Source of the DNA: Nemertoderma westbladi
Taxonomy: Eukaryota > Animalia > Xenacoelomorpha
Direction of reading: 5' to 3'
Length of the DNA stretch: 53,957 nucleotides
Assembly: GCA_032718475.1 (NCBI GenBank)
Contig: JAUCBJ010005647.1
Location: 1-53,957 of the forward strand
The translations under genes and the position numbers were made by a program. The notes under the pieces were generated by a model, which was not told where the DNA came from, did no database searches, and saw only the letters and a program-made list of their open reading frames with translations. Position 1 is the first letter of the stretch. The number at the start of each line of letters is the position of its first letter. This document shows, piece by piece, positions 1-53,957 of this stretch.

Positions 1-840
1 AGTCCCCAGACCTGCTCTGGAATCAAATTGTGTCAATTTTAACATCAAATAATAAAATTCACGGGAATAAATTTAAATTCATATTCGAATGAATTTCATA
101 AATTGTCATTTTGTGCAATTTATAACATTCCCAAAATTCCAGTAATTAATAGATCATGGGAGCGGAGATTCATATTGAGTGTACTAGAGCGCGAGAATCT
201 CCAACATATAGTCAATAGCCGATAAAATTTATAAAATCAGGCATAAAGAGAAGATTGACAATTAAAGAATTACTATTAAATAACATCCCAGATCTGTATA
301 CATGAGAATTGCCCTAATTCTACCGCTACTTTTCCATAATGTCACCATGGCAACACCCACGCTAGAATTAGAAGCAAGTTAAAGGAACAATAAAAAGCTT
401 GCCCCATTGCGTAGCATAAGAGTATACACAGCGCACTATTAGTATCCAAGGATACATAGTAATAACGTGACATTCTGGAAGACACTGACTAACGGACAAA
501 TGGCATGCATGTGTGCAGTAAGTAATGATTGTATGGAATTTGTGCGTTTATAGGTGAATGTTACTACTAAAGTGTGTTTACAGTAGCTAATCGCAATCGT
601 AAAATAGCCCTAACTCTACCGAGGTAACCTCAAGTGGATTCAAGCCTTTGGGACGGACAGTGGTGGGACTTGTGCCGGTTATCGTTGTCGTGCTGTTGCT
701 ACATGTTGGCGTAAACACTGCGACAGCGGTACATCGGCGCTGAGAAACCCACTGTCCGGGGGCAAAAGCCTAGTAGGCAGCGACGCCCGCTTGCCTAAAA
801 TATTAACTCATATTGATATTAATAAACTCAGATAGCAGAT

Positions 841-2968
841 ATGACGGAATTGATAGAAGATGACCTTGGTATTAGAGAGCGATATACTCTACCTTTACAA
901 GCGTTTGTGGATAGCTTGATACGCGGTGAAGCCGATCCGACTATTACGGAGGACGATGGTCGTTATATCGAACCGCCGATGTCCCAGGAACAACTTACGC
1001 GTGAATTGGACTATAGAAAATTCACCGCTCGCTATACGAATCGTAATGGTACGTATATGGACTTCTTAACTACCGGCCATGGGTATCGATGGATCGATGT
1101 TACCCCAGCCCGTTCTCGAGATGTTATTCAACGAAAGAATCATTAAAATCGGCTCAGCTGTTTACGGAGATCTCCAAAACGACTTTCGGAATATGGAGAA
1201 TATCCCCTATCCTTTCGTGGATACTCAGCTGATAGCTCCTTGGGCCGAAGGCCGAGGTTTCTTTCGCACCATGTATGCTAATGTGTCTAGCAATATTACA
1301 AAGGTGCAACGAACTTCCATCGGACATCTTGCCTTTCAGGAATACGGGTGGAATTTCAAGGTCGGAAATCCCATCAACTATCAATAAGTATACGGAGACC
1401 ATTATTCTCGATTATACTTTGACGGACCGTTGACCGCACCTGGCGCCGTGTATAGCTTCATGAGTGTTCCACTCCGTCCCTCCTTAGCTATCTACACGAT
1501 CTTCGAAAACACCGCACTTTCCGGTTGGCTAGCCGATGTGTGCAGTCGTACTATACGCGCCCATCCATTAATCCTTGGGACCAAACTCGCTAAGCTAGAT
1601 GAACATAATAAATTCATCCGCTTTGAATGTTTCCGACGGTTTTTAACCCCGTTTCGCAACGTGGATAGCCAATTCAAAGACCGCGCTTTGACCAAGCTCA
1701 GCTTAAGAGACTCGGCTGCGGAGAAGTTAGATAGCGCTGGATTCGCTATTTTCAGAGACATTTGTGTAATAAACCTGCACTCCTCGGTTATCCAAAGACC
1801 TCGGATCCCCACCGGTTATTCTGTCGTGGAAATTCAGACGGTAGGTCCACTTGAGGAGACGGCCATGCCTACCTCAACTATACAAGGGGAAGACGAACCC
1901 ATATGTTTAGAATCTGAAGAGATTCAGCCCCCCACGTCTCGGAGTAGCGATAGCGACTACATATTGGAATGGTATCAAGGTCCCCAGTGTCTTACTGCGT
2001 ATGATTATCGCCATGCCAATTATGTTTCTAGACAACGTTGTCGGCTGTGCGCATCGAGAGACCATATTACGTCTATGGACACCAACGATCTTTGTTCCTA
2101 TTTCCACGAGCAACCGTCGATGGAAATCTATTGTGCATATTGTCGGCTTAATAATTTGCACATTTTTGCTGTCTGCCCCCAATTTATGACTCAATGCCAT
2201 CATTGTCAATTAAAAGGACACGCCAGCTTTGATTGTCCCTTTAACCATGATTTAGAGAGCGTAGATGAAATGATTGTACTACGTTATATCAGAGCTTGGG
2301 AAGCGAACGCTGATTTACATTGTGATTCACGCCATCGCTATTATCCTGGACGCGCTTACGAAGGAGTTTATGCGTTCCATCCTTATTTGTTTGCCTCCGT
2401 CGAGCAGAAATCGCGCCTATCAAGTTATGAACTATTGAAGCGCGTTGGAGAATGTATTTCAACCAAATATGTACGCAAATTTCTCAGGAGCATTAATCCG
2501 AGTGACATCCATTCTTACAACTTAATAAACTTTATCCGTCAAGACCCTGCCTATGGAGACTTATTCGTCAACTCACACCCTGAGTTACAAGAAGTATATC
2601 GACGGCCTTACGAGTACCGAGCCCGCGAACGCGAGTTGGAAAGAACCATTAAACCAAGGAAGTTTCTAACTACCTATGGTCCACCCACGGCCCTCGTGCA
2701 GACCACTCGTACAGGACCCGTAAGAGCGGCTGTCTTGAAACGAGCTCTCAAAGCCGTTAGACCCCTCTCCCCGGACGTTGATGTCAATCAACCCGGTACT
2801 TCGACCGGCGGATATACCGATCGCAATCCCATACCTTCTGATGCAATCATATTGCACCCTTCACCCAGGAGTTATAGCCCTCCTCGTAAAGTGGCTCGCC
2901 CCAAAGAGAAAAGGACTCTTGCTAGCTTTAAAAAACTGCGTAAACGCCGTCCGCGCAAGAAAGACTAA
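841..2968 (+). pseudogene. Extra 3' ORF of LTR family A: DEDDy/WRN-like 3'-5' exonuclease + 3 CCHC zinc knuckles (disrupted)
   Basis: ORFs 841-1146, 1079-1387 and 1430-2968 join through one frameshift and an in-frame TAA (1385-1387). Exonuclease-like motifs LPQPVLEMLFNERIIKIGSAVYGD, FVDTQ and LAIYTIFE. Knuckles CRLCASRDH, CAYCRLNNLHIFAVC and CHHCQLKGHASFDC. Collinear with 24785-27335 and lies directly upstream of an LTR. Confidence 0.7.
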
Positions 2969-3046: not shown

Positions 3047-4256
3047 TGTAAAAGCTTTTGTGGGATAACTGATACGTTTGCCTTTGCTGGCCAGTTCCCC
3101 CCCAGTCGCTAGAATACTCTCAAAGGGATTTATAACTAAAATAGTGCAAGCTACCAGCTTATTGGCTGATGTGCTGTACGGAGATATCTGGGCTCAGTTT
3201 AATCGGCCAACTAGCTTAGAGAGGTTGCCTTAGCCTTGCTGTTCGTGTCGGCCAATAGAATTTGCGTAGGCGTTGATTTCGACCTATCCCAGCGCTACTG
3301 AACTGAATTTCCTATCTCTATGCTCATCCTCTGTGTTGAACGGGGCTTCGTGGAATAAGAGTTTTTGGTATACTCGTATAGTAGTAGTAGTCATATGATT
3401 TTATATGATTCTGTTGTTGTGTTCCCATTTTTCGCCATAACACCGGCTTTTTGGGAAGAACTCTAGTAAAACTGCTTAAATTATCGAAAGTATAAACTGT
3501 TACCGAATCCTACTCACTAACTAATCTAATCAATCTTAACTCACTATTAATCATATTGTTTGTACTGTTATTTACCGTCAGTTATTAATTGTACCTATTT
3601 GTTGATGGAAATATTGCTCTTTGGATAATACGGATAAATCACCCAAATTTCCCAATTTTCTTGATACACTACAGGTTAGAGAGGCGGGCTATATATAACA
3701 ATTGCGATTTATATTAATGTGGTGTGTATTGAATCTAATGTTATTTAGCAGACCCTACATGAGTCAATTGCTGCTCTCTTTATGTGTGATCAAATGTACT
3801 GACGGTCGGCAGAATAGTGTGCATGATTGTTATTGGTAACAAAGCATTTCCTAAAGAATGCGCTTTATACTTTAATCATAAGCAGCAGTATCGTTGCGTT
3901 TAGTATAAGTCCTAGTTCTGTTTAAATAGATAGAGCGCCACGTCCTAAAGGAACTGTTAATATTTCCCGAAAGCCAATAATATCTGTCAGAAATTAATTA
4001 ATAACGATCTATCGAATAATACAGTAAGTTTACACTGCAACCTTGCAACCTTACGCTGCAATAATAAAATTTAAGCAGCCGAATTCAGCCTCCCGGGTGT
4101 AGATCCATCGGGTGAATGATCGCGCATGGGCTGACTTCGGGTAATGTTTTGTGTATTAGCATAAAATATTGTCGTATGCTAAAGTTGTTTTAATTAACTA
4201 AAAGACATATAAATTTTGGCAGGTTGAACTGCTAAAGGTCTTCAAAAGCGCGAACA
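3047..4256 (+). mobile_element. 3' LTR of LTR retrotransposon family A (~1.2 kb, TG...CA)
   Basis: Near-full-length direct repeat of 49359-50563. Starts TGTAAAAG, ends GCGCGAACA, and is preceded by purine-rich GGGAGCGG (3039-3046, PPT-like). Confidence 0.88.
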
Positions 4257-10000: not shown

Positions 10001-10577
10001 TCTCCTCACTGGGTTTATTTAACCGCGTTCCTCCCTCCACAACTGCATGGCCTTGTAGGCCCTCACTAGGCAAATTGCCTCTTTCCCCTAGGTTTGTATT
10101 AATTGTACCACCATTAGACTTGCGTGTGAATTATACGCGTCGCCGCATCCGTGGGCTGCTGAGCTGTTACTGGATTTCTATAGTAGGCCAAAGGCCATTC
10201 AAAATAATTGAGTTTTGTTGTCAGTGTTAATAATCACAGTAATCGATAATAGCACAGTCTGAATATAATAGCATGCAATACAACGGTTAGTGATGACGGG
10301 TAAAAACTGTTCCGGTCTCACAACTGTAAGGAACCAACTGAACTAGTGATCAATAACTACAACGGTTATATCATTGACACATATTAAATTACCTCTACGC
10401 TACTGAGTAGCCTGAATATCCAATAGATGCGCTTTAATCACCCCAATGTGTTTTCCCGCCCACCATTGGCTTAACCTGATTAATTGTCACCTCGCCACTC
10501 CCTGTTGTCACCATCCCTACAAGCTAAGCCTTACTAGCTTGTTTGTCCCTCTGAGGTGGTTTGACCTCTTTCTGTGG
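7095..10577 (-). mobile_element. Internally deleted BEL/Pao element related to family B (LTR - gag fragment - partial LTR)
   Basis: Diverged direct repeats ~7140-7600 and ~10125-10577. The left copy extends to TGTCA (7685) and GTCATA (7095) on the minus strand, and its end resembles the family-B LTR end. The interior is homologous to gag at 17044-19000. Confidence 0.75.
7700..10100 (-). pseudogene. gag: Fragmented BEL/Pao gag
   Basis: ORFs 8889-9407, 8463-8828, 8293-8484 and 7820-8350 match family-B gag (RIELPPVEPFKFDGS, GHPAKIIR, WLRNKWRKIAFS) with several frameshifts. No pol. Confidence 0.85.
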
Positions 10578-14195: not shown

Positions 14196-14739
14196 TGTTA
14201 GCTTATTCAATCCCGCTAACACCCCATAAAGTTATAAGCCGATAAGCAATATTGGGAGCCACGAGATTGGGTAATTAACCAACTCGTGCCATCCCAATAA
14301 GAATGGGAAGGAGAAGCACACAATGAGGGTCAGGGGCCAAACCCCTAACCCAGAGAGAATAGGTGGAGTGAACGGGAACACTCCAAAGGGCGCCAACAAG
14401 GGTATCAACCAATCAGAGGGGGGAAAGGCATCGATTAGGTAGAGTAACAAGGCCAACCGTGCAATATAGCCACTTGGCAGTAATCATACCAGTTCAGTTA
14501 TCTCAGTGCAATACCGGTGCTAGATTAGGTTACAATAGTTTAGCTAGGGAAGGACCGGGACTTTAGTTACCGTATCCCGCCTTCCGTATACGACAATATA
14601 TCTCATACCTATATCTATATCTATATCTGCATATCATATTATATACGACAAACAGTACAAACTCATTTACTCTTTATACACGGCGGGGACGCGTGAACTA
14701 AAACCGGATAAACCGGGATCCCTCTTGGATCCCGTCACA
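14196..14739 (+). repeat. 5' LTR of family B (544 bp)
   Basis: Identical to the 3' LTR except one substitution seen and a 288-bp insertion in the 3' copy. Confidence 0.95.
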
Positions 14740-14748: not shown

Positions 14749-14805
14749 CCAGCTGCCGCCCTAGACAAACTCAGTAACCACCAGCCACCAACCTGCAGAA
14801 GAAAG

Positions 14806-17800
14806 ATGAGTCAGTCGGGAGAAATAACACCGACGCGGACCCCGGACGAAGAACAAACGATCCGCGAGGCCGCGACCAGGCGGTATAGGCCCACGACGCC
14901 GGAGCCATCGATAACGGGCGACCCGGAAGTTCAAGATGAGGGAGACCGTCTGGAGTCAGAAGCCGAGTCGAGAGGAGGGGGAATCGAGTCGGAGGATAGA
15001 GAGAACGGGCTCGAGGGAGAAGGAGACGAGTCGACACGGGGCGAGGGTCGACGCACCGGTGTCGTCGGCCAGCCACAGGCCGAGAGCGACGAACGGCCCA
15101 CCGAGACGATGACAGTGGGGCCGACGGTACGAGGAAGGACCCGGAGAGACGACGGAGGTGTCGATACCGATGTCGCCGGCCAGCCACAGGCCGAGGGCGA
15201 CGGACGGCCCGCCGAAACGGCGACGGTGGGGCCGCCGGTACGACGTCGAACCCGGAGAGACGGATGAGGGGTCGGCGACGAGGACGTCGGGGTTTCTGAG
15301 CGACTTCGACGGGCCTACAACGCGACCCGGAGACTACTAGAGGAGGCCAGAAAGGGGAAAACGATAGACGAGGTAAAACTGAAGTCAGGACTAGGTAAGT
15401 CGGACAGACATTTATACTATCTAATGCATTTCGGGCAGAGAGAATTGGCCGAGGAGAGAGCGAGAAAGGTTGCCGAGGAACTGTATGACTCATGGCGGCA
15501 TGGGGGTATACAACCTAGTGTAGTGTACATAGGGCCATATTTAATCGATGCCCGGGGTATAAAATTAATGGGTTGGAACAGACCTGAAGGGGGCGAATCC
15601 GAGGTTAACCCCGAGGATTCGGCCTCGTCGGTCGGAGGGAGTTCCGGGAGGAGGGGGAAAGCTAGTAGATCGGGAAGGCGGAGGGAGTCCGTCGTAACCG
15701 ATAAGTCTGCTACATCCTCCGCGAAAGAAAGACTGGTGAGAGAGGCAGGTGCCGCGTACCGTCTCGAGCTGATAGAGCAAGGTCAGAGGGAAATGGATAA
15801 ACGGCTAGAGGAGGGGAGAATGCGGCTAGAGAGGGAAGCGGCATTGATTAGAGAAACCGGAGAGAGGGCCGAAAGGGCTTTGAGAGGCCTTAGGGAGTGT
15901 GAGGAAATAGAGGAAAAGGAGTGTAGGGAACGTGAGGCAAGAGAGGAAAGGGAACGCAAAGAGCGCGAGGCGGAACGCAAGGAGCATGAGGCGAGAGAGG
16001 AAAGGGAACGCAAAGAGCGTGAGGCGGAACGCAAGGAGCATGAGGCGAGAAAGGAAAGTGAACGTAAGGAGCGTGAAGCGAGGCGAAGGGAGAGTGCTAG
16101 GAAAGTAGTAGAGTTGGCTGAGCGGGACGCGCGGGAGTGTGAGAGGAGAATGGCAGGAGCCGAGCGAGACCATGAGGAATTAAAGAGACGCCAAAGTGAG
16201 CTTGGGGAACATAGGGTTAGACGCGCGCACGAGCTGCAACTGGTGCGGGCGGGGGCGTCTGAGGGCGGGACTGGCTCGAGTATTCTAGGGGAGCCAGGGG
16301 CCGTGGATACATTTATTAATACCCCACTTGCAGGGACCGCACGACAGACCCAAAACTGGTGTGACCGTACGGGCGGGGGGGGGGGGGGGGTAACAATGAT
16401 AATGATACAGTAGACGTGGTTAATATTAATAGTACCGTATGGGATAATTCTAATCAAACCTTTATTGCAGGGAATACTTTGCCTAGTGGTAGTAATTTAA
16501 ATTTAAATCAGAACAATCTTAATATTAATGTAGAAAATAATCCTAATATTAATGTAGCTACGCAAAATAATCCAAATAATCAAAATAATAATAATTCAAA
16601 TAATTTAATTAATGATCCAAGCCCGAATTTACAAAGTAATTCAGACAGTGTAGTCGTGCAAAGTAATTCAAATGATTTTGTTTCAAACGAACAAATTAAT
16701 TCTGTATCCGATATGGGTGCTATTAACGTAAACACGTCGGGCGTGTACAGCCAGGCAAACGGGGACCTGGCAGGCCACACAGTTGGTGGGCCGGAAGTAG
16801 CTGGGTTAGGTAGACCCAGCGAGGGCCTGGTAGGCCACGCAGTTGGTAGACAGCGAGCAGAGGGCCTGGTAGGCCACGTAGTTGGTAGGCAGGGAGTGGC
16901 TGGGTTGAATAGACCCAGCGAGGGCCTGGTAGGCCACGCAATAGCAGAGGGAGAGGCGGGGGTGAATAGACCCGACCGCGATAGGGTTGATGTGTCGACT
17001 AGAGAGGGATATAGTAGCGTAGTGAGGGATAGCGAAGTTAGATGTGGCGAGTGGGGGGGGGGGGCTACAGGGGCCCCACAACAGCGAGTTCGCGGCGAAA
17101 GGGGGGGGGTGTGCAGAGAGTGTCCCACAGCCGTCAGCGGATAATGCGAGGGCCAAAATAGGTAAACCGCAACAACCGGCGACGGAAAGTAATAGGGGGA
17201 TTGCGAGTATCCCCAGCGGCGTGCGACCGAGCAGAGAGAGACAGGTTGACGTCGTGGGAGGGCGGACGAAGCGTCGAGCCCGATCAGAAGAGGGAAGAAG
17301 AACAGTGGGGTTTAACCGGGAGGTCGACGAGAGATCTCACGAGCGGGAATACTCCACTGAAAGGAGAAGAAGAGAGGATAGTAGTAGAGGTATCGCCGCG
17401 AACGATAGAAGAGCGAGGACGGATAGCGAGCCGTCGGTGGTCGAGATGAGAACAGAGAGTCAGTGGGGTCGGACTCCGGGAGATTGCCGTCGCCCCGGAG
17501 AGATGCGACCCGGCGAGGCGCACTACACGCCGAGAGAGGGGTACGCGATGTACCGGTACGAAGATGAAAACAGTAGAGAGGGGGGTCGAAGAGAAACTTT
17601 CCGACGGAATATACCTACCGATCGAGGATACGGTAGCCGCGGGGGGGACTACTCGAGAAGAATAAACTTCGATCCCGAACAACACATGCAGACTGTAGGA
17701 CATACTGTAGGCCTTACTGCACATACCACAGGCCATACTGAGAGAGGCAATGTAGGCGATAGGATAGCGTGGACAACGGGATTAAACCCGGAAGTCGCGG

Positions 17801-20800
17801 AATACATACCGGCGAGTAGGCCAGAAGCTGATAGGCCTATACCGGTACCAGTACGGCAGTATGACTACAGCATGCAGGGACATAACATATACCCAGGGGA
17901 GGGGGGAATCATTGCGGATTGTTGCATGGGCCCCAACATATTAACATCAACCCCAGTACCAAACATACCAGTGGGGGGGGGGACAGGGTGACATTCCCCC
18001 ATCACAATATCAACAATATACCCCGATAGGAGCAAGAACAACGAGACCCTTGGATGAGAATAGGTCGTGTGATACAGACATATGGAGGGGGCCGCTACCC
18101 CCGATGACATACCCAAGTCAGAGAAAGTCAAGAAATAGGACAGACGGAACGCACCAGACAGGAGAAACTATACAGTACCCATCGAATCCATTGGAAGCAC
18201 AGGCGATGGGGATGGCCACGTTGATCGATGCGTTGAAAACGAGGATCGAGTTACCACCCGTGGAACCATTCAAATTCGATGGGAGCAGGCCGGAAGAATA
18301 TCTACAGTTTCGGCGCATGTATAGTAACGAAATACTAACAAAAAACTTGACGCAGGCGGAGTGCCTAAAGTATCTACAAGTGTACACGGGAGGCCCAGCA
18401 TACGACATAGTGAGGCAATATCAAGGAATAGAGGGCGGCTTCACGACAGCATGGCGGGCACTGGATAGGGAATACGGGCACCCGGCCAAGATCATCAGAC
18501 AGACGTTGAGAGGCATAACATCGGGTGGCCTACAGGATAATCCCGTTAGCATTAAGACATTTGCTAACAAAGTTGAAAAGGCGCTAATCGTGCTGAAGAC
18601 GCTAGACGCGCCATACGAGCTCAACGCGTCCAACAACATCACCACGATAGCGCAGGCACTACCGAGCTGGCTGCGCAACAAGTGGAGGAAAATCGCCTTC
18701 TCCACTCGAGATAAGAAGGGTGCGGAACCGGGTTTAGAAGAAATGTCAAACTTCTTAAACTACGAGGCTGAACTAATAACTGACCCAGTCTATAGCGAAG
18801 ATAGCCTGGGAAAGGGACCTAAGACAGACTACCATAGACCGAAACCAGAGCACAACACATCAAACGCATTACCGAGACTCAGGCAATCATTGCCATATGC
18901 AGCGATGCAGGGGACTGCAAGTCCACAGCTAGCCGAGGATAAGACAACACCATGGAACGGACAGGGAAACAATAACAACACGAATAAACATGACCCCAGT
19001 ACGTCCAGTAGGCTAAATCCAAACAATAAGAATAGTAGGGACTTTGGTACAAACGCAACTGCGATACGCAATGTGCTGTATAAAGAGGGCTACGACCCAA
19101 AGAGCAAATGCCAGCTACACGCAAATGCGCTTCATCAAACCATGAACTGCAGGTACTGGCAGGCGCTACCTAGGCAAGATCAGATAGATTATGCGTTCAG
19201 CAATAAAATCTGCTCGCGATGTGTAATGAGTGGACATAGAGCAAGGGAGTGCAAGGAGAAGCCAATAAAATTTGGTCAAAGGAGAGGCCAAACGATGGCG
19301 ACGAGCACAGTAGGGGCGAAGAAGAGGGGAACGGTGTTACTTGGAGTAGTACCAGTGCGAGTGATCGGGGAAGGCAATCGATCAGTAACAACACTAATGC
19401 TGGTTGATAGTGGAGCTGCCTTCACATTAGTCGAGGAATGGGTGGCCGAAGAGATAGGATTGAGAACGAGGCCAAGCAGGATGGCGGTAACAACCATCTC
19501 TAGCAAAGATGAGATCCTAGAGATGAGAACAGGACGGTGCGCAATTGCAGCAGTGGCACCAGGATGCGACTATGGGGCAACCATCGACCCCATCCAAGTG
19601 ATAGAGTCAATTAATATTAATGCCAGGCGACCAACCAACATCGAGGTCGAGCAGTATAAATTCCTGGACGACATTGACTTCTCAATCCCAGACGTGGACG
19701 TTAGGAAGGTGTCCATCATAGTAGGCATGGACTGCCCAACGGCCCACGAAAGAATGCAAACGGTCTTCGGCGAAGACAAGCAGAGTGACCCGGTGGCCAT
19801 ATTAACACCATTCGGGTGGACGCTGAGTGGTCCAATTAAGAGCAAGATACCATTTAGGATGTCAGAGACATCAGGATGCATGTTCGCGGGAACAATGCAG
19901 GAAATGGGTGACGAGGGAGCAGAGGAGCAGCTTAAAAGACTGCTCAGACAGGATTTCGAGGGACTGAAAGAAACCGGGGTCGGGACCTCGGTGGAAGACA
20001 AGCAGGCTTTACAAAGCGTGGAGGAATCGATGACATGCGATGAGGGGCGGTATACTATAGGAATGGTATGGAAACTACCGAAGATACCGCTGCCCGACAA
20101 TAGGGGGATGGTACTCACGAGACTCCGCAAGCTGAAACAAACACTAAAACGGAGCCCCGAGAAGAATGAGTACATCTACAGGACGATTAAGAAGTACGTC
20201 GAGAAAGGATGGGCCGTGGAGTTACCGGTCGACGAGCCGAACACGGACAGGACATATTACCTGCCACTACACGTGGCTTTAGATCCAAAGAAAGGTAAAC
20301 TACGGATGGTAGTCGACGCATCGGCAAAGACCGACGGAAAATGCTTAAACGACTACCTGTTGGAAGGCCCAAACATATACAATTCGGGCATAGAGGTGTT
20401 ACTTAGATTTAGAAACGGGAAACACGCCTTCACGTGTGACATAGAAGGCATGTTCAACCAAGTCCGTGTAACAGAGGAAGATAGCGACAGTCAACGCTTC
20501 TTATGGTATAACGGCGAGGAAGAACCGTCGATAATACCGGCATATAAGATGGTAGTACAAAACATGGGGGCCAAGTCGTCTTCATTTACGACGACTATGG
20601 CAGTGAGAGACACAGTGAAAGGGAAGGAAGATAGATAGAGCAGTAGGGCCGTCGATATGATTCGACGCGGCTTCTACGTAGACGACGGAATGGAGTCTGG
20701 AAATACGGTTAAGGAGATACTGGACACAGGGCGCGAGGTTCGCGACATCCTAAAAGGATCCGGCTTTAACCTGACCAAATTCCAATCCAGTTCGGAAGAA

Positions 20801-23314
20801 TTTATTAAGGCGATAGAGGACAGGAGACCAGAATCGACCATGGACAATCCCACAACAGCCAAAGGGCAGGACATGGCGATTAAGAGAACAGAATCTCAAC
20901 AGAAGGCATTGGGAATCGTGTGGAACAGGGAGACAGACGAACTGAAGTATCAGCTGAACCAGGAGGGCGCAGACATCCACACGAAGAGGGGCTATGTATC
21001 GTATATAGCAAGGATATACGATCCCCTAGGCCTAGCATCCCCATTATTAGTCACGGGGAAACAGATACTCAAGAGAGTATACAAACTGAAGGATGAGTGG
21101 GACGTAGAGGTACCAGAGGAAATCAAGAAACAGTGGAGCAAGTGGACAGGAGACTTGGAGAAGATGGGAACATACAACTTGCCACGGGTGTATTTCCCGG
21201 ATGGGAACATGACGAATGTGGACCTACACATGTTCTCCGACGCGTCGTTGGAAGCGTACGGAGCGGCACTCTACTTAGTACAACGAGAGGGGGCTCATAA
21301 GCCAAGACTAGCCTTTAGTAAAGCAAAGTCAACGCCACCGGATTCAGCATCAGTTCCTAAGTTAGAACTGACAGCCGCGAGACTAGGGGTAAGAGCCACA
21401 GCCTACCTAGTGGATACTATTCCCAGCATAGTGGAGACACACTACTGGACGGACTCCATGGTAGTGCTTGGTTGGCTACACAACGAAAGAACGAGATACC
21501 CGATATTCGTCGCGAATAGAGTGGACGAAATAAGGGTGAGCACAGAACTGGAAAGGTGGCACTACTGCCCAACGGACGAGAACCCAGCAGACTTGTTGTC
21601 GAGGGGCGTGGTACGCCACACTTTCTTGAAGAAGGAAGTATTGTGGCAACATGGGCCACAATTTCTGAGCGATAAGGAAGCCTGGCCGCCGATGAGGAAG
21701 GTGGACCCGGGCTCGGAAGTAGTATCAGAAGGAGAAGAGGGAGATTCAGAGGGAGAAGAGATATACTCCCAGATGGTGAGGGAGATTAGGGACGTGCAAC
21801 CAGGACGGGAACTGTGCGATAACCCGACGGATAAACTCCTCAGCTACAGTTCTAGTTGGTATAAGACCATGAAACTAGTGGCGTACTGGAGAGCCTTCGG
21901 GAATTTCCTTGCGGGAGTTGGCAAGGACAAGAAGATCAGGACAACCATAGATCTGGAAGGAGCGGCCAAGGCAGTGATCCGCTATGAACAACGGAAGAAC
22001 TACGGCGACGAGGTGGAACGCGTCGGTAACTAACAGCACCTCCGACGGGACAGCGAGCTGATTACGCTGTCGCCACAACTCAATGACGACGGGATTCTAG
22101 TAATGAATTCTAGGGTGGGATACAACAACAGCATAGTCGTACCACCGAAACCTATCATCATTCCTACAGGATCGCCAATAGTCCACCAGATTATATGGGA
22201 CTCCCACAAATCGATATTGCATGGGGGCACCAACCGAACCCTCACAGAGATAAGGAGGACCTATTGGGTCAAACAATTAAGGAAGAAGGTTAAAGCGGTA
22301 GTGGGGCAGTGCCAGACCTGCCGACGAGCGAAGAAGGAGCGAGCCGTACAGGAGATGGCGCCACTACCGGCGAGTAGGGTAAGACAGCACGACCCGCCAT
22401 TTACGCATTGCGGTGTGGACATGTTCGGGCCGATAAAGATCAAAGTGATGCGACACACGGAGAAACGCTACGGCATTATCTTCGTATGCAATAACACACG
22501 GGCGGTAGGGATAGAACTCGCCCAAGATGCAACCGCATCAGCATTCATTAATGCCCTAGAAAGATTTAGAGACCGCAAAGGTGGGACGATCGCAGTGATA
22601 TACAGCGACAACGGCACCAACTTTGTGGGCGCAGAGAGTGAGATGGCAGAGGCCTTGGACATCTTGGAGGGAGAAGAAGTCAGGGCAGCCATGAGACGAC
22701 GACAAGTAAAGTGGGAGAGAAGGACGCCGTATGCACCACATACACTAGGATGCGTCGAGAGACTGGTGGGCAGTTCAAAGCGTCTAATGACGAAGCTAAT
22801 GAACACCCACATGGTCACTGAGGACGTCTTACGGACAGTACTTGCGAAGTGCGAGGGGATCATTAATAGCAGACTGCTATATCCGGAGAATGATGACCCT
22901 GAGTCATTAGACGTGCTGACACCTAGCCATTTCCTGATGGAAAGGCCAGCGACCATCGATATGCGGCGTGTAGACCCAGATGACATACACTCCCGCCAAA
23001 GTTGGAAAGTCGCTAAAGCAATAAGCGCAGAGTATTGGAGGAGGTGGGTCGAGGAATACCTACCCACACTCCATAAACGAAGCAAGTGGAGGAAGTCAAA
23101 CAGGGAGTTAAGAGAGGGATATCTCGTAATCGTTACGGATGATACTATCATCAACAACCAATGGCGGTTGGCGAGAGTAGTAGGCACCTACTCCGACGAG
23201 GACGGAAGAGTCCGATCGGTAGAAGTACGGATAGGTGGAAAGATAGGTGCGAAGGACAGAAAAACCTACAGGAGAGCTGTAGGCAAATTCTGTCTGTTAG
23301 AAGGGGCACCTTAG
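14806..23314 (+). pseudogene. gag-pol: BEL/Pao gag-pol polyprotein with frameshifts and nonsense codons
   Basis: Gag knuckle CSRCVMSGHRAREC; protease LVDSGA; RT YYLPLH, RMVVDAS, DIEGMFNQV, YVDD; RNase H FSDAS, LEL, WTDS, NPAD; integrase H-H-CC, GVDMFGP, SDNGTNF, ERLVG, WRRWVEEYL. In-frame stops at 20636-20638 and 22031-22033, and several gag frameshifts at poly-G runs. Confidence 0.95.
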
Positions 23315-24310: not shown

Positions 24311-24784
24311 GTAAAAGGGGATATAGATATAGATATTAGTTAGCAGTTAGTAGAGAGAGGGGGGCATATGAGTACAGCTGGGTAAGTCGTGTGGCCACAC
24401 GACGCATACTGCTGTACTGCATAGGCCAGAATACAGAGTAGGCCAGAATGTGGATTAGAGAATAGAATAATCCATAGGCAGTAGTAAGTAGTAGGACAGT
24501 AGAATCAAATTAAATAAATAAATAAATAGAATAGGGCTGAAAGTTACAAAATAGTGGCAACACAAGGGAAGTTATTCTAGAACATAATAAAAGTAACGGA
24601 CAGAAATTGTAAATTACGCTCATTTACTAGCTTCAAAATTAATTAGTGATAATTTAGGTTAAAAGGCGCAGTTAAGTAGGAAGTAGGCCATTATCGAACC
24701 GTACAGAACATCCTAGATACATCACTCATCTGTATTGCGCCTTGGTAAGGCACCACCTTGCAGGTGAGCGAGTGAACGTTCGGA

Positions 24785-27335
24785 ATGGCGAGTAAGTTGA
24801 TCAGAAATAGAAAAGCGGAGTCAGGAGGAAAGGAGATACTGGTGGATTTCACCGAGAGGCATCCGGAAGAGAAGACGAGAGGATACTACGAGAGGTTGGA
24901 AAGGGGTCACGCGGCGCGAGCACTGCAAGATCACTTCAGGGAGATGCACGAACAGCGGCTGGTCGGGACCTACGGGACGCCGTCGCTGGACAACGCGATC
25001 TTCCAACACTTCCACTACGTGGTGAGAGGGGACGAGGCGAAGTTCGGGATTCCGAAGTACCCGAGGGAATCACCGAGGAAGGGCTGGAAGAGATTCATAG
25101 AGTCCGTCAACAGAGGAGGATATATGATCCTAGACGACGAGGGAACCGTGGAAGACGAGGCGGGTTCGAGACGAGGAACGGCGGGGTCGGCCAGGACCAT
25201 ACTCCTACATTTGGCCACGCCAAATGGGGACATCTTCTTATTCGACCTAGGGACGTATGGGAAGAAGGACAGGCCGAAATTAAACCGGTTACCGAAAGTG
25301 GTACAAGTCTTAGTAAGAGAGAAGTCGACGACGAAAGTGGGATCGGCGATTCGCGAGGACGCGGAGAGGATCATCAGTCCGGACGCCACCAACCTCCTGG
25401 ATATGCAGAAAGTCTTTATGGCTATGACGGCACCGGATGGGTTGGGGGTAGTCGAAAACACAGGCCAAAGCGGGGCAGTGGCGATGGGCCAATCATTGGG
25501 GCTCGTATGCCACAAACCGATGGACTGGGGGAAGTTTAGGGAAGAATACGGAGCAGAACTAGCGAACTCGCTAAAGTGGGGAGCGAGACCGGGAAGGCAG
25601 GAGGTATATCAGTTCCGAAGGGGAGCGATAAAGGTATATCAGAAGCGATATATCCTGCAGGAGGACTGGATGATGATAAGTTTGCTTAACTTATTCATGA
25701 CCGTGGTTATCGAGAGGGAACCAGGGGCATTTCTGTTATCGGGATCACCCCTAAGCTACAGGAGAGCCTTTAAGACGGCCTTTGACGATCTGGTAGACCA
25801 CCCGGGGCTGAAGGGCGAGTCGGTGTACTACAACAGCCGACATCTGGTAGACGGGGAGACAGATACACCGTATCAGAGATGGGAGCAGCTAGAGACGGAT
25901 AGACGAGAAGCAAAGCGACTGGAAGAAGTCGCTAGACGGGAGAGGATAGAAGCAGAGGAGAGGGAAGAGGAGGCAGGGACACAGAGTTACGGCTTCAAGG
26001 AACAGGCAGGCCTAGACGAACTTCATTGGACTTCATCAGGGAGTTCGGAGGAGTCTCTAGGGCGAGAATTGGGATGGACGGTGGGATCGCCGAAACAGTC
26101 GACGTCGGGGTTGCAAACAATGCCCATACCAGCGGGCGCCGAGGGCGACCAACCGCCAAGGAAGTTAAGGGAGCTAGAAGGATGGAGAGCTACGGGCGAG
26201 AGCCAAGGCGGGAAGGGACATAGTGGATCCATCGGGATACCGGGGTTGGAGACACTACCAGAAGAGGAGGACGACGACGATGAGTTCGGAGAGATGCCGC
26301 CCATCGAGAGGATAGGCCACTCGGACATGGACTGGGTTGGCGGAAGGGTGGTGACTGCCAGTGGGGCAAGGGCCTTCTGGAACAGATCCGGCAAGCGGAC
26401 CTGGGTGCACGAGGAGTGTGGCGATGGATTTCGCGGGGAGCACCATCAGGTTGGGCGAGCAACCGGGGACGACACCACGGATAGTATTCGGGGAGACGAT
26501 GCCCGAGAGGGGCGGAGAGATCGACGTAGATAGAGAGACCAACGTAGAGAAGTTCGCCTACCAGCTACTCCACAGACCGCGGAGATCGCTTGGGACGAAA
26601 GACGAGGTGGGACGGGAGACATTGGTACTCGGCTGCGACTACTGTGGGAGACAGACCCATCGGGAAAGCAGCTGCCTATACCGGTTCCAAAAAGGAACCT
26701 TTTGTCTCTACTGCAGAGAACCAAGCCACAGGATGGGGGCGTGTCCACGGTTGCATAACCGATGTCCAAAGTGCCACTTTCGGGGACACTACGGACGCGA
26801 GTGCGACTGGATGAACGACGAGGAGAAGTTCACAAGATTCGAGGAGTGGGCCGACGTCGGGGCCATGACGCGCCAGCGCATGAAGGCCCAGGAGTTCAAG
26901 TGGGGTTTCTTCCTTATCAATCAGGAGACTCACATGGAAATCATAAAGCGGAGGCTGCCGTTTACCTACCAAGAGGTAGCAACGGCGGCGTCGTACGCTG
27001 GAGTGATGAACACGCAAAGATATTTGGACAGGTGGACGCCAGAGAACCGAAGGGAGTTTAGGGATTTCTTGGCGGAGCACGTACCAAAGGCAATGAAAAT
27101 GATCCTATGGGACGCCACCAGAGGGAGACAACCGGGCCACTCTGAGGGGCCACCGGCGAAGCGATATCGGGCACTAATAACACCAGCGCCCAAGGAGCCA
27201 ACGACCGGGATCAGCAAGGAAGTAGCGGCGAAGGTCCGAAAGCAGAAAGCGGATGATGCCAGAGGAACGGTGATAACCAAGAAACGGCCCAGGGAACAGG
27301 ACGCCAGGGGGAACTATCCCCAGAGGAACAGATAG
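24785..27335 (+). CDS. Extra 3' ORF of family B: DEDDy-like 3'-5' exonuclease + triple CCHC knuckle (two overlapping frames, probably one frameshifted gene)
   Basis: ExoI MILDDEG, LLHLATPNGDIFLFDL, LPKVVQVLV..KVGSAIRED (ExoII), LLDMQ and QKRYILQE (ExoIII-like). Then CDYCGRQTHRESSC, CLYCREPSHRMGAC and CPKCHFRGHYGREC. Confidence 0.78.
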
Positions 27336-28050: not shown

Positions 28051-28882
28051 TGTTAGCTTATTCAATCCCGCTAACACCCCATAAAGTTATAAGCCGATAA
28101 GCAATATTGGGAGCCACGAGATTGGGTAATAAACCAACTCGTGCCATCCCAATAAGAATGGGAAGGAGAAGCACACAATGAGGGTCAGGGGCCAAACCCC
28201 TAACCCAGAGAGAATAGGTGGAGTGAACGGGAACACTCCAAAGGGCGCCAACAAGGGTATCAACCAATCAGAGGGGGGAAAGGCATCGATTAGGTAGAGT
28301 AACAAGGCCAACCGTGCAATATAGCCACTTGGCAGTAATCATACCAGTTCAGTTATCTCAGTGCAATACCGGTGCTAGATTAGGTTACAATAGTTTAGCT
28401 AGGGAAGGACCGGGACTTTAGTTACCGTATCCCGCCTTCCGTATACGACAATATATCTCATACCTATATCTATATCTATATCTGCATATCATATAGGTTT
28501 AAATGAGTTAGAATGGGCTATATTCCGGTTTAAATAGTTAAAAAATTCAAAATTTACATGGCAATATAATTATGATCATTAAACATATTAATATTAACAT
28601 ATTAAACTATATTAAACTTTATTATTTTTAAACCAGACGTTCTGAAGATTTTGAAATGCATTAACGTTTTTAATATCTGGTTTACTTATTTATTTGTTTT
28701 TAATTACTTTTAATAATTTAATGTTTAATGATCATAATTATATTGCCATGTAAATTTTGAATTTTTTAACTGCATATCATATTATATACGACAAACAGTA
28801 CAAACTCATTTACTCTTTATACACGGCGGGGACGCGTGAACTAAAACCGGATAAACCGGGATCCCTCTTGGATCCCGTCACA
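28051..28882 (+). repeat. 3' LTR of family B, with secondary insertion 28495-28769
   Basis: Matches the 5' LTR. The insertion is flanked by a 13-bp duplication CTGCATATCATAT. Confidence 0.95.
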
Positions 28883-30209: not shown

Positions 30210-30362
30210 TTCTGACCTACTTAAAGATTGCCCTGCCGATTCTGACCCACTTAAAGATTGCCCTGCCGATTCTGACCCAGTAAAAGATTGCCCTGCCGAT
30301 TCTGACCCAGTAAAAGATTGCCCTGCCGATTCTGACCTACTTAAAGATTGCCCCGTCGATTC
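30210..30362 (+). repeat. 30-bp coding repeat (DSDPxKDCPA x5) in the YR C-terminus
   Basis: Direct inspection. Confidence 0.88.
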
Positions 30363-33274: not shown

Positions 33275-35577
33275 AATTTATTTTACAGTTGAATGCCTAT
33301 CACGATAATAACAGTTAAAGTAAGTCTAGGGGAAATCAGTATCAACTGTCAGTCTCGTAGTTACTGATATTGCTACTCAATGTAACGTGGTATATATCTA
33401 GTATTAGAATACCGGTATACACCTATAGTATATATAACAGTATTATTACAGACTATGATCAGTCACAGAATACCGGTATATAAGTTTAGCCTAATTTATA
33501 TAAATATATAATAAGCTTACTTTAAACACTGGTAATGTCAATAATGTAATAATAACTGATTATCCAAATTTTAGGAATTATTTCCCTTTACTTTATGACT
33601 GATATTAAGCAGTAGGTTCAACTGATATTAAGACCTAATTGATGTATAACAGGCCTATTAATTTATAAATCTGATTGAGTTAATTTATAAATATATATAC
33701 CCGTAATGGGTTTTGTCAATATTTGAAATAAATGTTATTATTTCTACACAGAGGCTGGACACTCTCAGTGGAGTGATACTTGTTAGACACTAAATACTGA
33801 TAATTCTACCTAACTAAGTTACTTATCACTACAAATTACTTACGTATCGGGTTGAGATTACACAATCTCTAAATAAACAATGAACAAGTTACACGTACAA
33901 TTTTTAGGGTAATTTAACAAGAAATTTACGAACCAGACTAACAAGGAGTTAGAATTTCTGGTTCTTACAGACTGACAGGAATTACGGTATTTTGAAACCA
34001 ATAAAGTAGTATTCAGTACGTTGTGTTGTCCAGATAAGGAAATGCCAACGTCTGACGGCTTATAGTCTACACACTAAGCACTACGTACCCGGAGTGTCCT
34101 ATACCTAGAGATTAATTATCAAAGCCAACTATAGCTAACGGACCTATTAACCACATTACAACACAAATATACTGCCTACGCACTAAATTACTTTCAGGAA
34201 AGCACTGTACTCTAAACCCTAAATTAGGTACTAGCACTTATACTACGTATAACTTGCAGTTAAATATACATGAACAGCCAAAAGAACCACGGTATCTGCT
34301 GGAGTGATCGGAGCACTAAATCACCAGTCTGTCCTACGCCAAGCAGTCCTGAAGTAGTACCAGGGTTAATTTAACTATAACAGTATGCATAACAAGCATA
34401 ATTACTGTAAGGGATAAACTTGGGGACATGAAGGTTGCAATTACTTGCATAAACTCTGAATAATAAATATTACGCTACCCGTACAGACTATTCAAACAAA
34501 ACACAGACCAAATGCTGGCAGACTACTGTCAAGCCTAAATAAACCACAGTATATGCAATCTCCGAAATGGTTAGTTAGTAAGCGTTCTAGACTACGTAGT
34601 ACGACTTATTCCTTCGTGGAGGGTTTACCTTATAGCACTGGATGCCTCCACTTTCCTAACTAGCACTTTATCGGACAGACACTCTATATACACTGCAATC
34701 GCCTCAGACCTAACAACAATCAGACAACAATCCGGCCTACAAGTTATTTATATAATCTGAGCAGGCTTACACGCCTTCTGCTCAATATTACACTTACAGA
34801 TAAATAAGCCAACAGAAATAAGTAAAATCCTAATAAAACCAGGGCTGCAGTCCCTGATTAAATATTAAGACCTACCGGTATATAATTATCGCAATCGAAT
34901 TAATACTGCTGTAAGTACCGGTTCGGGTCAGGCCTACAGTTTACCGTCCGACCAGTACGTTTTGGGTTTATTGCCTACTGGGCAATAAAAGAAACAAAAT
35001 CTATTAATGTTTGCGCTTTTAGACCTTTTAGCAGTTAACCTGCCAAGTTAAATGTGCCTTTACTTATAAATCGACTTTTGCCCTTACCAATTACCTGGTC
35101 TACTGAATTTACATCCACCGAAGCCAGTCCATGCGCGGCGTATGACCCACTATATGGGAGACTGGATTCGGGTCCAGAGAAAGTTATTATGGTGTAGGCT
35201 ACTTTGTATTATTCATTTGATCGCTACTATATAATCTCCAACAACTATATTTACTTTCGGGGAAATATTACCAGTTCCTTTAGGACGTGGCGCTTTAAGT
35301 ATAAAACAGAGTTATGACTTACACTAATCACAACTAGATGGCTACATAGCGCATTCTTTAGGAGATGCTTTATTAACCTTCACATGACTTCACACTACTT
35401 CACACTAATTTGCTGACCATCACTGACTTTTATCATATATAAGGAGGATTGCAACTGACACACGAAGGTATTATGAAATAGCATTTAATCCACACAAAAA
35501 CCACTATAATTTGAGTTGCAGTTGCTACCGGTAGACCCTTCTGCTTACCTGAGTAATTAAGAAAGTTGAGGGGTTAA

Positions 35578-41320: not shown

Positions 41321-41455
41321 TTGATTCTGATTTGTAAATTGTAAATTAACGTTTAAACAAACCTAATTATGGGAATATTTTTATATAATTTATTTTCATT
41401 TTTATTATATTTATTCGTATTGCAGTGCGATTGTATATATAATATAAATTCTAAC

Positions 41456-49358: not shown

Positions 49359-50563
49359 TGTAAAAGCTTTTGTGGGATAACTGATACGTTTGCCTTTGCT
49401 GGCCAGTTCCCCCCCCGGTCGCTAGAATACTCTCAAAGGGATTTATAACTAAAATAGTGCAAGCTACCAGCTTATTGGCTGATGTGCTGTGTGGAGATAT
49501 CTGGGCTCAGTTTAATCGGCCAACCAGTGTAGGGAGGTTGCCTAAGCCTTGCTGTCCGTGTCGGCCAATAGAATTTGCGTAGGCGTTGATTTCGACCTAT
49601 CCCAGCGCTACTGAACTGAATTTCCTATCTCACTGCTCATCCTCTGTGTTGGACGGGAGCTTCGGGGAATAAGAGTTTTTGGTATACTCGTATAGTAGTA
49701 GTAGTCATATGATTTTATATGATTCTGTTGTTGTGTTCCCATTTTCGCCATAACACCGGCTTTTTGGGAAGAACTCTAGTAAAACTGCTTAAATTATCGA
49801 AAGTATAAACTGTTACCTAACTAACCTAACGCAATCGACTTATCTGATCTAATTAACTCACTATTAATCATATTGTTTGTACTGTTATTTACCATCAGTT
49901 ATTAATTGTACCTATTTGTTAATGGAAATATTGCTCTTTGGATAATACGGATAAATCACCCAAATTTCCCAATTTTCTTGATACACTACAGGTTAGAGAG
50001 ACAGGCTATACATAACAATTGCGATTTATATTAATGTGGTGTGTATTGAATCTAATGTTATTTAGCAGACCCTACATGAGTCAATTGCTGCTCTCTTTAT
50101 GTGTGATCAAATATACTGACGGTCGGCAGAATAGTGTGTATGATTGTGATTGGTAACAAAGTATTTCCTAAAGAATACGCTTTATACTTTAATCATAAGC
50201 GGTATCGTTGCGTTTTAGTATAAGTCTTAGTTCTGTTTAAATAGATAGAGCGCCACGTCCTAAAGGAACTGTTAATATTTCCCGAAAGCCAATAATATCT
50301 GTCAGAAATTAATTATTAGCGATCTGTCGAATAATACAGTAAGTTTACGCTGCAACCTTACACTGCAATAATAAAATTTAAGCATCCGAATTCAGCCTCC
50401 CGGGTGTAGATCCATCGGGTGAATGATCGCGCATGGGCTGACTTCGGCTAATGTTTTGTGTATTAGCATAAATTGTTTTCGTATGCTAAAGGTGTTTTAA
50501 TTAACTAAAAGACATATAAATTTTGGCAGGTTAAACTGCTAAAGGTCTTCAAAAGCGCGAACA
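49359..50563 (+). mobile_element. 5' LTR of a second family-A element (element runs off the window end)
   Basis: Direct repeat of 3047-4256, followed by a ~2.2-kb leader and a long ORF. Confidence 0.88.
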
Positions 50564-50576
50564 GTAACAGTTTATA
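50564..50576 (+). promoter_or_regulatory. Non-tRNA primer-binding-site position, complementary to own LTR (49804-49816)
   Basis: GTAACAGTTTATA is the reverse complement of TATAAACTGTTAC. Confidence 0.7.
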
Positions 50577-52744
50577 ATCTTATTGCAGTAGGCAATAAGG
50601 TTGCAAAATACCGTAGTGACTGGTAAAACTGAACCGGTGCTTCTGTAGGTCAGTAGGCCTAACTGTCATCACCGGTACCGGTACTGCTGTACAAGTACAT
50701 TTAGTATTATTCGATTTTGATTATTGTATACCGGTAGGCTGTTTAAGAGATTAGGGACTGTACACCCCTTGTTTCTTTTGGAGCTTACTTATTTCTGTCG
50801 GTTTTATTTCCTAGTAAGTTAATATTGAGCTGAAGACGTGTAAGTCTGCTCAGATTGTTCAGATAATTGTAGGCTGAACTGCTGTCTGACTGTGTTGAGT
50901 TTGGAGAGATTACGGCGTGTGTAGAGTTTGTCTGATAAAGTGCCGTTAGTAAGTTGGGGCAGCCATATGCGGTAAGGTCAATCCCCTCTTAAAGAATAAG
51001 TCGTACTACCGTGTTAGAACGCATACTAACTAACTGTTTCAGAATCTGCATATACTGTAGTTTATTTAGGCTTGATCGTAGTCTGCCAGTGTTTTAGCCT
51101 GTGTTTGTTTGTGTGGTCTGTTCAGGTACCGTAATAGTTATTACTCAGATATTTGTAGGCTAGATTGTTGTCTAGCTATTCTTAGGCCTGAAGGGATTGC
51201 TGCGTGTGTAGAGTTGGTCTGATAAAGTGCCGTTAGTAAGTTGGGGCAGCCATATGCGGTAAGGTCAATCCCCTCTTAAAGAATAAGTCGTACTACCGTG
51301 CTAGAACGCATACTAACTAACAGTTTCAGAATCTGCACATACTGTAGTTTGTTTAGGCTTGATAGTAGTCTGCCAGCGTTTAGTTTGTATTTTGTTTGAG
51401 TATTCTGTACGGGTAGCGTAATATTTATTATTCAGAGTTTATGCGATTATTCGCAACATTCATGTCCCCAAGTTTATTCCTACAGTAATTGTGCTTGTTA
51501 TACATACCGTTATAGTTAAATTAACCCCGGTACTACACGGGCTGCTCGGCGTAGGACAAGACTGGTGACTTTGTGCTCTAGTCACTCCAGCAGATGCCGT
51601 GGTTCTTTTAACTGTTCAAGTATATTTAACTACTGATTATTTGTTATACCGGTACTTGTACCTAATTTAGGGTTTAGTGTACAGTGCTTTCCGAAGTAAT
51701 TAGTGTAGGCAGTATATTTGTGTTGTAAAGTGGTTGATAGGCACATTCGTTAGCTCTATTAGCTTCTGGGTAGGAACAATCCGTGATACATAACGTAGTA
51801 CCTATAGCGATACAGTTATAAGTCGTCAGGCGGTGGTATTTTTCCTATCTGGACAGTACAATATATTTACTACTACTTATTATTTCAAATACCGTAGTAC
51901 CCTGTCCGTTGTAATAACCAGAATTCTAACCCTTTGTTAGGCTGGTTTGTAGACTTCCTGTAAAATTACCCTAAAAATTTCGTACGTAATATTTTGTTGT
52001 GTTTAATTAGAGAATTAATCTCCTCAGTATCGTAAGTAATTTGTAGTATTAAGTAACTTAGGTAAATTAGAATTATCAGTTTTAGTGTCAAATAAATAGC
52101 ACTTCACTGAGAGCGCGCAGCTTCTGTGTAGTGACCCCCCAGAAATAATAACATTTATTTCAAATATTGACAAAAAACCCATTTAAACGGGTATATATCT
52201 ATTATCAATCAACTCAAACGATTTATACATAGTAGGCCTGCCAGACAACAACTAGGTCTCAATATCAGTTGGACTACTGCTTAAATAACGGTAAAAAAAT
52301 AAGTTAAAGTAACTAAGTAACCCTAAAATATTCAGGAATTCAATTATTCTAAAAATAATTGACATACCGGTACTTACCATAGGCTTATTATATTTATTTC
52401 TATAAATTTGAGCTGAAATCATACCGGTACTCTGTAATTAATTTTAGTTCATAATTATACTTATATACTATAAGTGTAAGCTGTATACCGGTATTCCCTA
52501 TAGGCCTATTATATATTTATATATATCTGTGCTAAAATTATATACCGGTACTCTGTGACAAATCTAGTCTGTAATAATACTTATATATATTATAAGCATA
52601 CCGGTATTCTAATATATTGTATATATATCACGTTACACTGAGTAACAGTACCGGTAATAAATCGCTAGGCTTGCGGTCATACTGAATTACCAGACTTGCT
52701 TTAACTGAAACTATAGTAGTAGATATTCAACTGTATAACTAAAC

Positions 52745-53957
52745 ATGTCTGACACTCAGCAAAACCTGTCAGACAGTCTGATCGATACAACTATCTGTGA
52801 TTCAGATAGGAGTGTGGAGCGAATAAGAAAGGAGTTCGGCTCACCTCCTACTGTAAAAAAGGTCATCCCTCCAGTAGTATCAGACCCTAGGCTAGTCCAC
52901 CATAGGTCCATCATAGGCACTCGGGCACAGGTAAAACGGGACCAAATGGCAGTTGTCCTATCGCAGCAACATCTTGGTCAAGAACCTACTTCCCAGCGAC
53001 CCGATAGCTCCAGCAGTTCGGATACTGTAGAGCTGACTCCCGAACATGGAGTGCAGATGGCTGATACAGTCTACTCGGACCCCCTTCTTACTCTTCCTGC
53101 TGCAGTGCTAACTACTATATTCATTGCGGTGGAGGAACATCAAGCCGACTGGGCGAAGAATAAGCGAGCGACCCAAGATAATTACGCAGGATACGCCAGG
53201 GAAGAATTGATATCTATTGTTGAATCACAATGGAACTTTCCCGGACTCGGACTTCCGTTGGATCTGTCCGAGGCTACTTGGGAAGATATACACAGGATGG
53301 GAGTGGCTAAAGATACAATGGATCCAGCTGTTTGGAAGAGGTCGGCAGCAGGATATGTGCAGGGATTCTTCGGATCTTTGGATCGATTGGAAGAACAACT
53401 GTTTCGACAACCTCACGGACCTCAAGAGCAGGAAGAGCTGCTATATCAAATACGCGAAAGAACCCTACGCATACGACTAATCCTCTCAGCCTTTGAGGAA
53501 ACTTCCAAAAGAAGACAGGACACGTCGCTGCAGGTTGCTGTCAAAACTTGGCTACATCGGGTAGATCTCAAAGTACAGGAAACGGCCCGGTGGAAATCCC
53601 AGCTGGCTGAGAGATCAACTTATGAAGAACCAACTGATGTCACCCTTTCTCAAGCGGAAAGCGAAGAGGCCGCCGAGAAACCGCGAACTAGAGACGCTAT
53701 CGACATTTATTTGTCCGACTATCAGCGATTCCTAGGAGACGAAGAGTTGAGGAGACGGCTGTCTGGACTTTCCCCTAATAGTGAAGGAACCAAGCTTGTA
53801 TTGGACTCAATCGATGCCGAAATGTTAGCTGCAAACCAAGCTGAATGTGATGAAAAACTCCGTCTCACTAGAGTCCGAGAAGAACAAATAAAGAAAAGAA
53901 GGATAGAGGAACAAAAGGCGGCGGCTATGGCAGATGCAGAAGCAGAAAGAAAAGCAG
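52745..53957 (+). CDS. gag-like ORF1 of family A, open to the window end (absent from the supplied ORF track)
   Basis: Manual translation MSDTQQNLSDSLIDTTICD...AAAMADAEAERKA has no stop over ~400 codons and is homologous to the A' ORFs. The gag identity comes from position only. Confidence 0.75.
   Translation, partial: MSDTQQNLSDSLIDTTICDSDRSVERIRKEFGSPPTVKKVIPPVVSDPRLVHHRSIIGTRAQVKRDQMAVVLSQQHLGQEPTSQRPDSSSSSDTVELTPEHGVQMADTVYSDPLLTLPAAVLTTIFIAVEEHQADWAKNKRATQDNYAGYAREELISIVESQWNFPGLGLPLDLSEATWEDIHRMGVAKDTMDPAVWKRSAAGYVQGFFGSLDRLEEQLFRQPHGPQEQEELLYQIRERTLRIRLILSAFEETSKRRQDTSLQVAVKTWLHRVDLKVQETARWKSQLAERSTYEEPTDVTLSQAESEEAAEKPRTRDAIDIYLSDYQRFLGDEELRRRLSGLSPNSEGTKLVLDSIDAEMLAANQAECDEKLRLTRVREEQIKKRRIEEQKAAAMADAEAERKA

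Follow-up and report, generated by a model that had tools for sequence, protein, structure and literature searches.

The 13 nucleotides that directly follow the LTR of a retrotransposon family of Nemertoderma westbladi, here called family A, are the exact reverse complement of a segment within that LTR, and pairing of the post-LTR sequence with the element's own LTR was also found in a second family of the same contig (family B) and in distant relatives of family B within the BEL/Pao superfamily. The pairing is real, goes far beyond chance and is part of a wide pattern. It makes it very probable that the RNA of the element itself, in one form or another, is the primer of reverse transcription. 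The window analyzed is the whole stretch of 53,957 nucleotides of contig JAUCBJ010005647.1 (assembly GCA_032718475.1), and the features of the two families and of their relatives within it are collected in Table 1.

Table 1 LTRs, predicted primer segments, candidate primer binding sites (PBS) and coding regions in the window
Feature	Position	Strand	Remarks
5' LTR of a family A copy	49359..50563	+	TG...CA, 1205 bp; from LTR-LTR comparison
3' LTR of another family A copy	3047..4256	+	short purine tract ahead at 3039-3046
Predicted self-primer segment, LTR A	49804..49816	+	LTR positions 446-458; no difference between the two A LTRs
Primer segment in 3' LTR of A	3491..3503	+	same letters as 49804-49816
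Candidate PBS of A	50564..50576	+	exact complement of the LTR A segment; no TGG
First ORF of A, Gag-like by position	52739..53956	+	open at window end; no Pfam match, no database relative
Extra 3' ORF of A, in pieces	826..2968	+	zinc-knuckle cluster homologous to extra ORF of B, E 8e-6
5' LTR of B	14196..14739	+	544 bp; TSD AAACG at 14191-14195 and 28883-28887
Predicted self-primer segment, LTR B	14562..14570	+	LTR positions 367-375; also 28417-28425
Candidate PBS of B, GTAACTAAA	14740..14748	+	9-nt complement of the LTR B segment
gag-pol of B, in pieces	15268..23314	+	DUF1759, aspartic protease, Peptidase_A17, integrase, DUF5641
Extra 3' ORFs of B	24776..27335	+	3'-5' exonuclease-like domain (lead only), zinc knuckles
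3' LTR of B	28051..28882	+	interrupted by palindromic insertion
LTR of C, relative of B	10125..10569	-	no complement after LTR end
LTR of D, relative of A, 3' part	35008..35568	-	69% DNA identity; part expected to hold primer segment missing

Post-LTR complements in families A and B

The two LTRs of family A belong to different copies, as judged from their flanks (GGGTAC on the left, GCCAGT on the right, no common TSD). Compared over 3047-4257 and 49359-50564 they are 94.5% identical, and their similarity stops one base past the terminal CA. The G that both copies share at this place is taken as chance, and the end of the LTR was therefore set at 50563. A boundary elsewhere, which the preliminary description had named as a possible objection, was thus examined on the basis of LTR-LTR similarity, and its further claims on this region held: TATAAACTGTTAC, the sequence of both primer segments, has its exact reverse complement at 50564-50576; pairing begins at the first base after the CA and none extends into the LTR end; and no TGG-starting tRNA site follows the LTR. 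Among 20,000 dinucleotide shuffles of LTR A, one reached the exact 13-nt match. With a laxer score, in which spacers and splice junctions are allowed, the value of 13 was reached in 0 of 300 shuffles of LTR A. A hypervariable stretch of 40 nt, richer in differences than any other part of the LTR, lies right after the segment (14 of the 64 differences between the LTRs fall within LTR positions 451-500), and in contigs of the DNA runs no variant was located in the segment or the PBS among the 40 listed of 300 variants. Downstream of the segment, a possible 538-nt intron was noticed at 49992-50529 (+), whose donor and acceptor are kept in D and which includes an AATAAA at 50370; its removal would shorten the loop between segment and PBS from 747 to 209 nt, close to the 169 nt of B.

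Element B, which spans 14196-28882 and has LTRs that are 99.8% identical, is a bona fide member of BEL/Pao (Belpaoviridae) by its sequence features. It shares with the ICTV description of this family the domain set and order (Gag-PR-RT-RH-IN, with a DUF1759 Gag, a protease, a Peptidase_A17 RT-RNase H region and an integrase with DUF5641), TG...CA LTRs, a 5-bp TSD and a polypurine tract. Its 9-nt complement was reached in 37 of 20,000 shuffles and is modest taken alone. LTR A and LTR B have no BLAST similarity to each other. Their PBS begin with the same five bases, GTAAC, and differ at positions 6-9, each change being mirrored in the respective LTR, which amounts to four compensatory differences. 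Variants and depth of B were taken from contigs of three DNA runs, depth not being equal to copy number. The B segment forms a depth peak in a variable LTR (about 60,000 versus 3,000-10,000 in X1), and no variant was found in it among the 40 listed of 62 variants. The commonest variant of the B PBS (about 8%) retains a G.U pair, whereas a rarer one, with about 5% of the depth in X1, disrupts the last pair at position 9 and has to be counted against the pairing.

Although the LTRs of B are nearly identical, its pol (17945-23314, +) consists of a single frame with two stop codons. The palindromic, MITE-like insertion of about 270 bp that splits the 3' LTR (28495-28766) must be very recent in view of this LTR identity, and a 37-bp array at 23467-24300 separates pol from the extra ORF. 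In both A and B an extra ORF with an exonuclease-like region and zinc knuckles follows pol instead of env. For B, the exonuclease assignment is a lead only, coming from an Atlas match of 0.94 with PF01612 on 50% of the members; the Atlas neighbors of the extra ORFs are fungal and plant 3'-5' exonuclease-like proteins, and the exonuclease-like region of B gave no Pfam or PDB match.

The Pol of family A lies outside the window, and its membership in BEL/Pao is putative, the indirect signs being a possible kinship to B in the start of the PBS and in the extra ORF, where the zinc knuckles match as given in Table 1 and the exonuclease-like piece matches with E 0.12. Extra ORFs of this type move between retroelement groups (PMC5408684, in part). 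Database searches for relatives of the ORFs of A gave none (all Atlas matches were under 0.9), a 22-nt motif common to A and D was absent from metagenome and viral contigs in an exact scan, and the viral contigs searched held no Pol relatives. The LTR of D is cut where the segment is expected, and D thus drops out of the covariation comparison with A. Copy C has no self-pairing (best 4 nt) and was scored as a miss; its PBS has probably been deleted, because right after its LTR a stretch of about 2 kb, homologous to leader and gag in B, is missing. The remainder of the window includes ORFs at 28900-30681 (+) in which a tyrosine-recombinase-like R...H-x-x-GH...Y motif was recognized by eye, with no Pfam match, and which we take to be Crypton-like, a non-LTR retrotransposon with endonuclease and RT domains (39962-43824, +), a 41-bp array of 50 copies with 97% identity (45325-47364) and two inverted, foldback-like arrays of a 32-bp unit (12686-12935 and 13523-14021).

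Own-LTR pairing and splice junctions in distant BEL/Pao loci

Relatives fetched with an alignment of the Pol of B and 24 database matches comprised 79 BEL/Pao loci (best 80 of 558; 27-37% identity). For six of them the LTR-LTR repeat served to fix the LTR at both ends, independently of pairing; in L062 the LTR end was moved back by 3 nt so that it coincides with the terminal inverted repeat. Five of these six loci have own-LTR pairing of 11-12 nt, and in the sixth a 4-nt spacer leads to a TGG site and self-pairing is absent (score 4). The seven non-TGG elements with fixed ends thus score 13 (A), 9 (B) and 11, 12, 12, 11 and 12 (distant loci), the observed score being reached, in the same order, in 0, 3, 0, 0, 0, 1 and 0 of 300 shuffles; non-cognate pairs (n=56) score 4-9, with 9 in two cases. 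The covariation that the preliminary description had proposed to look for is therefore present in B and the distant loci: in A, B and five of the six distant loci the post-LTR sequence pairs with the LTR of the same element but not with those of the other elements.

L003 pairs contiguously, while in L016, L020, L051 and L062 full pairing depends on joining the two sides of a GT-AG junction within the LTR, so that a junction-spanning full complement is found in four of the five pairing distant loci (four of seven if A and B are included). For A and B no splice junction improves the pairing (spliced score 0). L008 lacks exactly the 168-nt GT-AG intron of its sister L010, both having the same 11-nt complement, and L003 has an intronless 3' LTR and a 5' LTR with an acceptor at that place. 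We infer that the intron in LTRs of the L010 type is real, because its exact loss is the outcome of reverse transcribing a spliced RNA. The spliced duplex is stronger than the unspliced one in all 16 intron-bearing leaders, 12 of which had been picked by pairing.

Of the 57 loci whose 5' sequence was long enough for a blind scan, 11 showed junction complements of 11-13 nt where an LTR end is plausible; matches of 10-14 nt away from LTR ends, which count against the pairing, occurred in five. Among 21 loci with LTR ends picked by eye, ten have a full 10-14-nt complement (including L043, whose 13-nt junction was taken from a separate scan), three have one exon side, and eight (L009, L013, L019, L026, L045, L047, L048, L052) are without convincing pairing; in several of these eight, part of the LTR is absent from the contig. 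As pairing was the basis on which both sets were chosen, neither is an independent test. Classification of L049 as TGG-type is not supported, since the motif was not seen to follow an LTR and the locus groups with the self-complementary ones. Side observations concern L043, L069 and L070, which form head-to-tail tandem arrays of BEL/Pao elements with shared LTRs and units that are 100% identical, and LTRs that end in TA instead of CA (L020:6295-6835, L008:183), the TSD of L020 being clean.

The anatomy of the leader was analyzed in a set of 20 (A, B and 18 loci, 13 of them chosen by pairing). The cognate duplex averages -18.2 kcal/mol versus -7.5 kcal/mol for non-cognate pairs and ranks first in 16 and second in four leaders. 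The predicted primer ends with AC or AT at its 3' side in 19 of 20 cases. The first exon contributes only 4-9 nt to the complement, and Inr-like motifs lie 26-53 nt upstream in nine of 20 leaders (a count without control), which together suggest that the paired segment is not the extreme 5' end of the transcript. In B, L001, L002, L010 and L020 a GGA[C/T]-like motif was seen by eye just 5' of the paired segment; past a bulge of 2-4 nt, it can pair with the extension of the PBS in another short helix.

About 20 distinct PBS sequences, each matching its own LTR, bear on the question whether a host tRNA half or another small RNA is the primer, the LTR match being incidental. Half-tRNA primers are known in Ty1/copia (PMC6317226, in part), and the A segment opens with TATAAA at LTR position 446, which was counted against self-priming and which, if read as a TATA box, would leave the complement to chance. 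No tRNA gene was detected in the window by ARAGORN. A primer supplied by the host is nevertheless very improbable, as A and B differ within one host at four of the first nine PBS bases and track their own LTRs there, as do the other PBS sequences, and as a junction made by splicing is without meaning at the DNA level.

Long-range pairings in the leader are common in retroelements, and the PBS adjoins the gag ATG in some relatives, so that the duplex might instead be a regulatory or packaging structure, such as a splice-dependent switch near the start of gag, with another primer in use. This reading is very improbable as well: the duplex begins 0-4 nt beyond the LTR end, at the place that minus-strand priming demands for chemical reasons, the pairing is missing from the one element that has a TGG site, and no other PBS is visible in A or B.

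Probable priming from the element's own RNA

A cut in the 5' leader, in analogy to Tf1, is a reasonably probable source of the primer. According to this proposal, an LTR segment of 9-14 nt, carried in the 5' leader of the RNA, would serve as primer instead of a tRNA. The segment would be part of R, some tens of nucleotides downstream of the start site and a short way ahead of the poly(A) signal, and would anneal to the PBS that directly follows the 5' LTR. The element's reverse transcriptase would use its RNase H to cut just 3' of the duplex and create a 3'-OH, as in Tf1; from this end it would copy U5 and then jump to the 3' copy of R. In each cycle the primer would be the template from which plus-strand synthesis renews the PBS, and this proposed copying would explain why PBS and LTR segment change in lock-step. 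In intron-bearing families the primer would be built by splicing; the intron would persist because the 3' LTR end of the RNA is the template for all sequence 5' of the cut, and would be lost exactly when this end is also spliced; A and B would be such intronless forms. Two features of A count against self-priming: the nearest canonical AATAAA lies 554 nt downstream of the segment, and the loop to the PBS is long (747 nt versus 169 nt in B).

Self-priming could also start from the other R copy, i.e. from the genomic RNA at its 3' end or from a short spliced polyadenylated LTR transcript acting in trans, which would be cut, or else shortened as far as the duplex, perhaps through a 3'-5' exonuclease. 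In 16 of the 20 leaders, A not among them, a poly(A)-like hexamer lies 11-75 nt after the segment, and an acceptor directly before the poly(A) signal is the normal layout of a terminal exon. Both speak for the other R copy, as does the retention of the intron, which would also result if the 5' copy remains unspliced; the hexamer was counted in favor of the cut in the 5' leader as well. The resemblance of the extra ORF of B to 3'-5' exonucleases, again as a lead, and comparable ORF3s in LTR elements of rotifers (PMC5408684, in part) fit an exonuclease that trims the primer. We nevertheless regard this source as rather unlikely: the exonuclease assignment of B is without a Pfam or PDB match, relatives such as L016 have only about 1.6 kb from the RT-RNase H match to the 3' LTR and hence little room for an ORF beside integrase, and Tf1, the sole proven case, uses a 5' segment.

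A FastTree phylogeny of 104 RT-RNase H rows included 77 of the 79 loci (two were too short) and no named reference elements; the clade names Sailor, Sinbad and Suzu are used in PMC6238403 and PMC3118150 (in part). The self-complementary loci are scattered in a group of 92 rows together with proteins from fish, echinoderms, molluscs and nemerteans. B forms a long branch beside a set of insect and TGG-type sequences (support 97), outside the spliced self-complementary group, a placement compatible with one origin or with two. For the superfamily as a whole, we lean slightly towards the view that a large part of BEL/Pao would do without tRNA priming and take the primer from its own leader, mostly across a splice junction, so that the spliceosome would license reverse transcription; A and B would then either descend from these forms with loss of the intron or represent an independent invention by a deep-branching lineage whose exonuclease-like gene could trim the primer.

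Relation to known priming systems and significance

The ICTV profile of Belpaoviridae lists an 18-nt PBS for tRNA-Arg or tRNA-Gly and calls replication poorly understood (PMC8742986). A, B and most of the delimited relatives differ from it in lacking such a site with its TGG start; the tRNA-type PBS is a described trait of the family, membership in which rests on Pol. Self-priming occurs in Tf1/Tf2 of S. pombe, Tj1 of S. japonicus and the Tf1/sushi and Tcn1 chromoviruses of Ty3/gypsy (PMC7175516, PMC4600332, PMC6317226, each in part), RNase H cutting the Tf1 RNA between bases 11 and 12 (PMC7175516, in part). As in Tf1/sushi and Tcn1, no tRNA site is present in A and B and the PBS at the LTR edge is complementary to the own LTR (over about 11 nt in Tf1). 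By its sequence, the A/B pairing thus resembles Tf1 self-priming without belonging to the Tf1/sushi group, which has a Ty3/gypsy chromovirus Pol instead of the BEL/Pao Pol of B. Moreover, Tf1 uses the first 11 nt of its RNA, whereas the segment here appears to lie inside R and requires splicing in most relatives, and primer cleavage is proven for Tf1 and here predicted from sequence alone. The claim of the preliminary description that family A primes from its own RNA is supported by covariation; the geometry would differ from that of Tf1, the segment probably lying inside R, and A is a putative member of BEL/Pao by indirect evidence.

For the BEL-type element Cer7 of C. elegans a self-encoded primer has reportedly been proposed, a tRNA-like RNA from an internal 3' region, which differs from the LTR segment or splice junction proposed here. 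For the TAR lineage of plant Ty1/copia elements (Houba, Osr-1), self-priming has likewise been predicted from sequence, in a second superfamily; these elements differ in being copia elements of plants, and splice dependence is not mentioned in the available part of the source (PMC6317226). Literature searches, to which subscription journals and Repbase Reports were out of reach, found no paper on self-priming in BEL/Pao, in agreement with its earlier characterization as undescribed for these elements. The words PBS, priming and tRNA are absent from the accessible portions of the main texts of PMC3118150, PMC554778 and PMC6238403, and those of PMC8220671, PMC3601003 and PMC5408684 contain nothing on BEL/Pao priming.

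Primer sequence, primer 3' end and splice junction are predicted to the base. If the proposal is true, BEL/Pao would be the third superfamily with self-priming, and its spliced form would link splicing to the start of reverse transcription, for which no description was found in the literature examined. It may also explain why elements are missed by annotation tools for want of a PBS, and the elements themselves would no longer depend on the supply of tRNA or be open to silencing through tRNA fragments.
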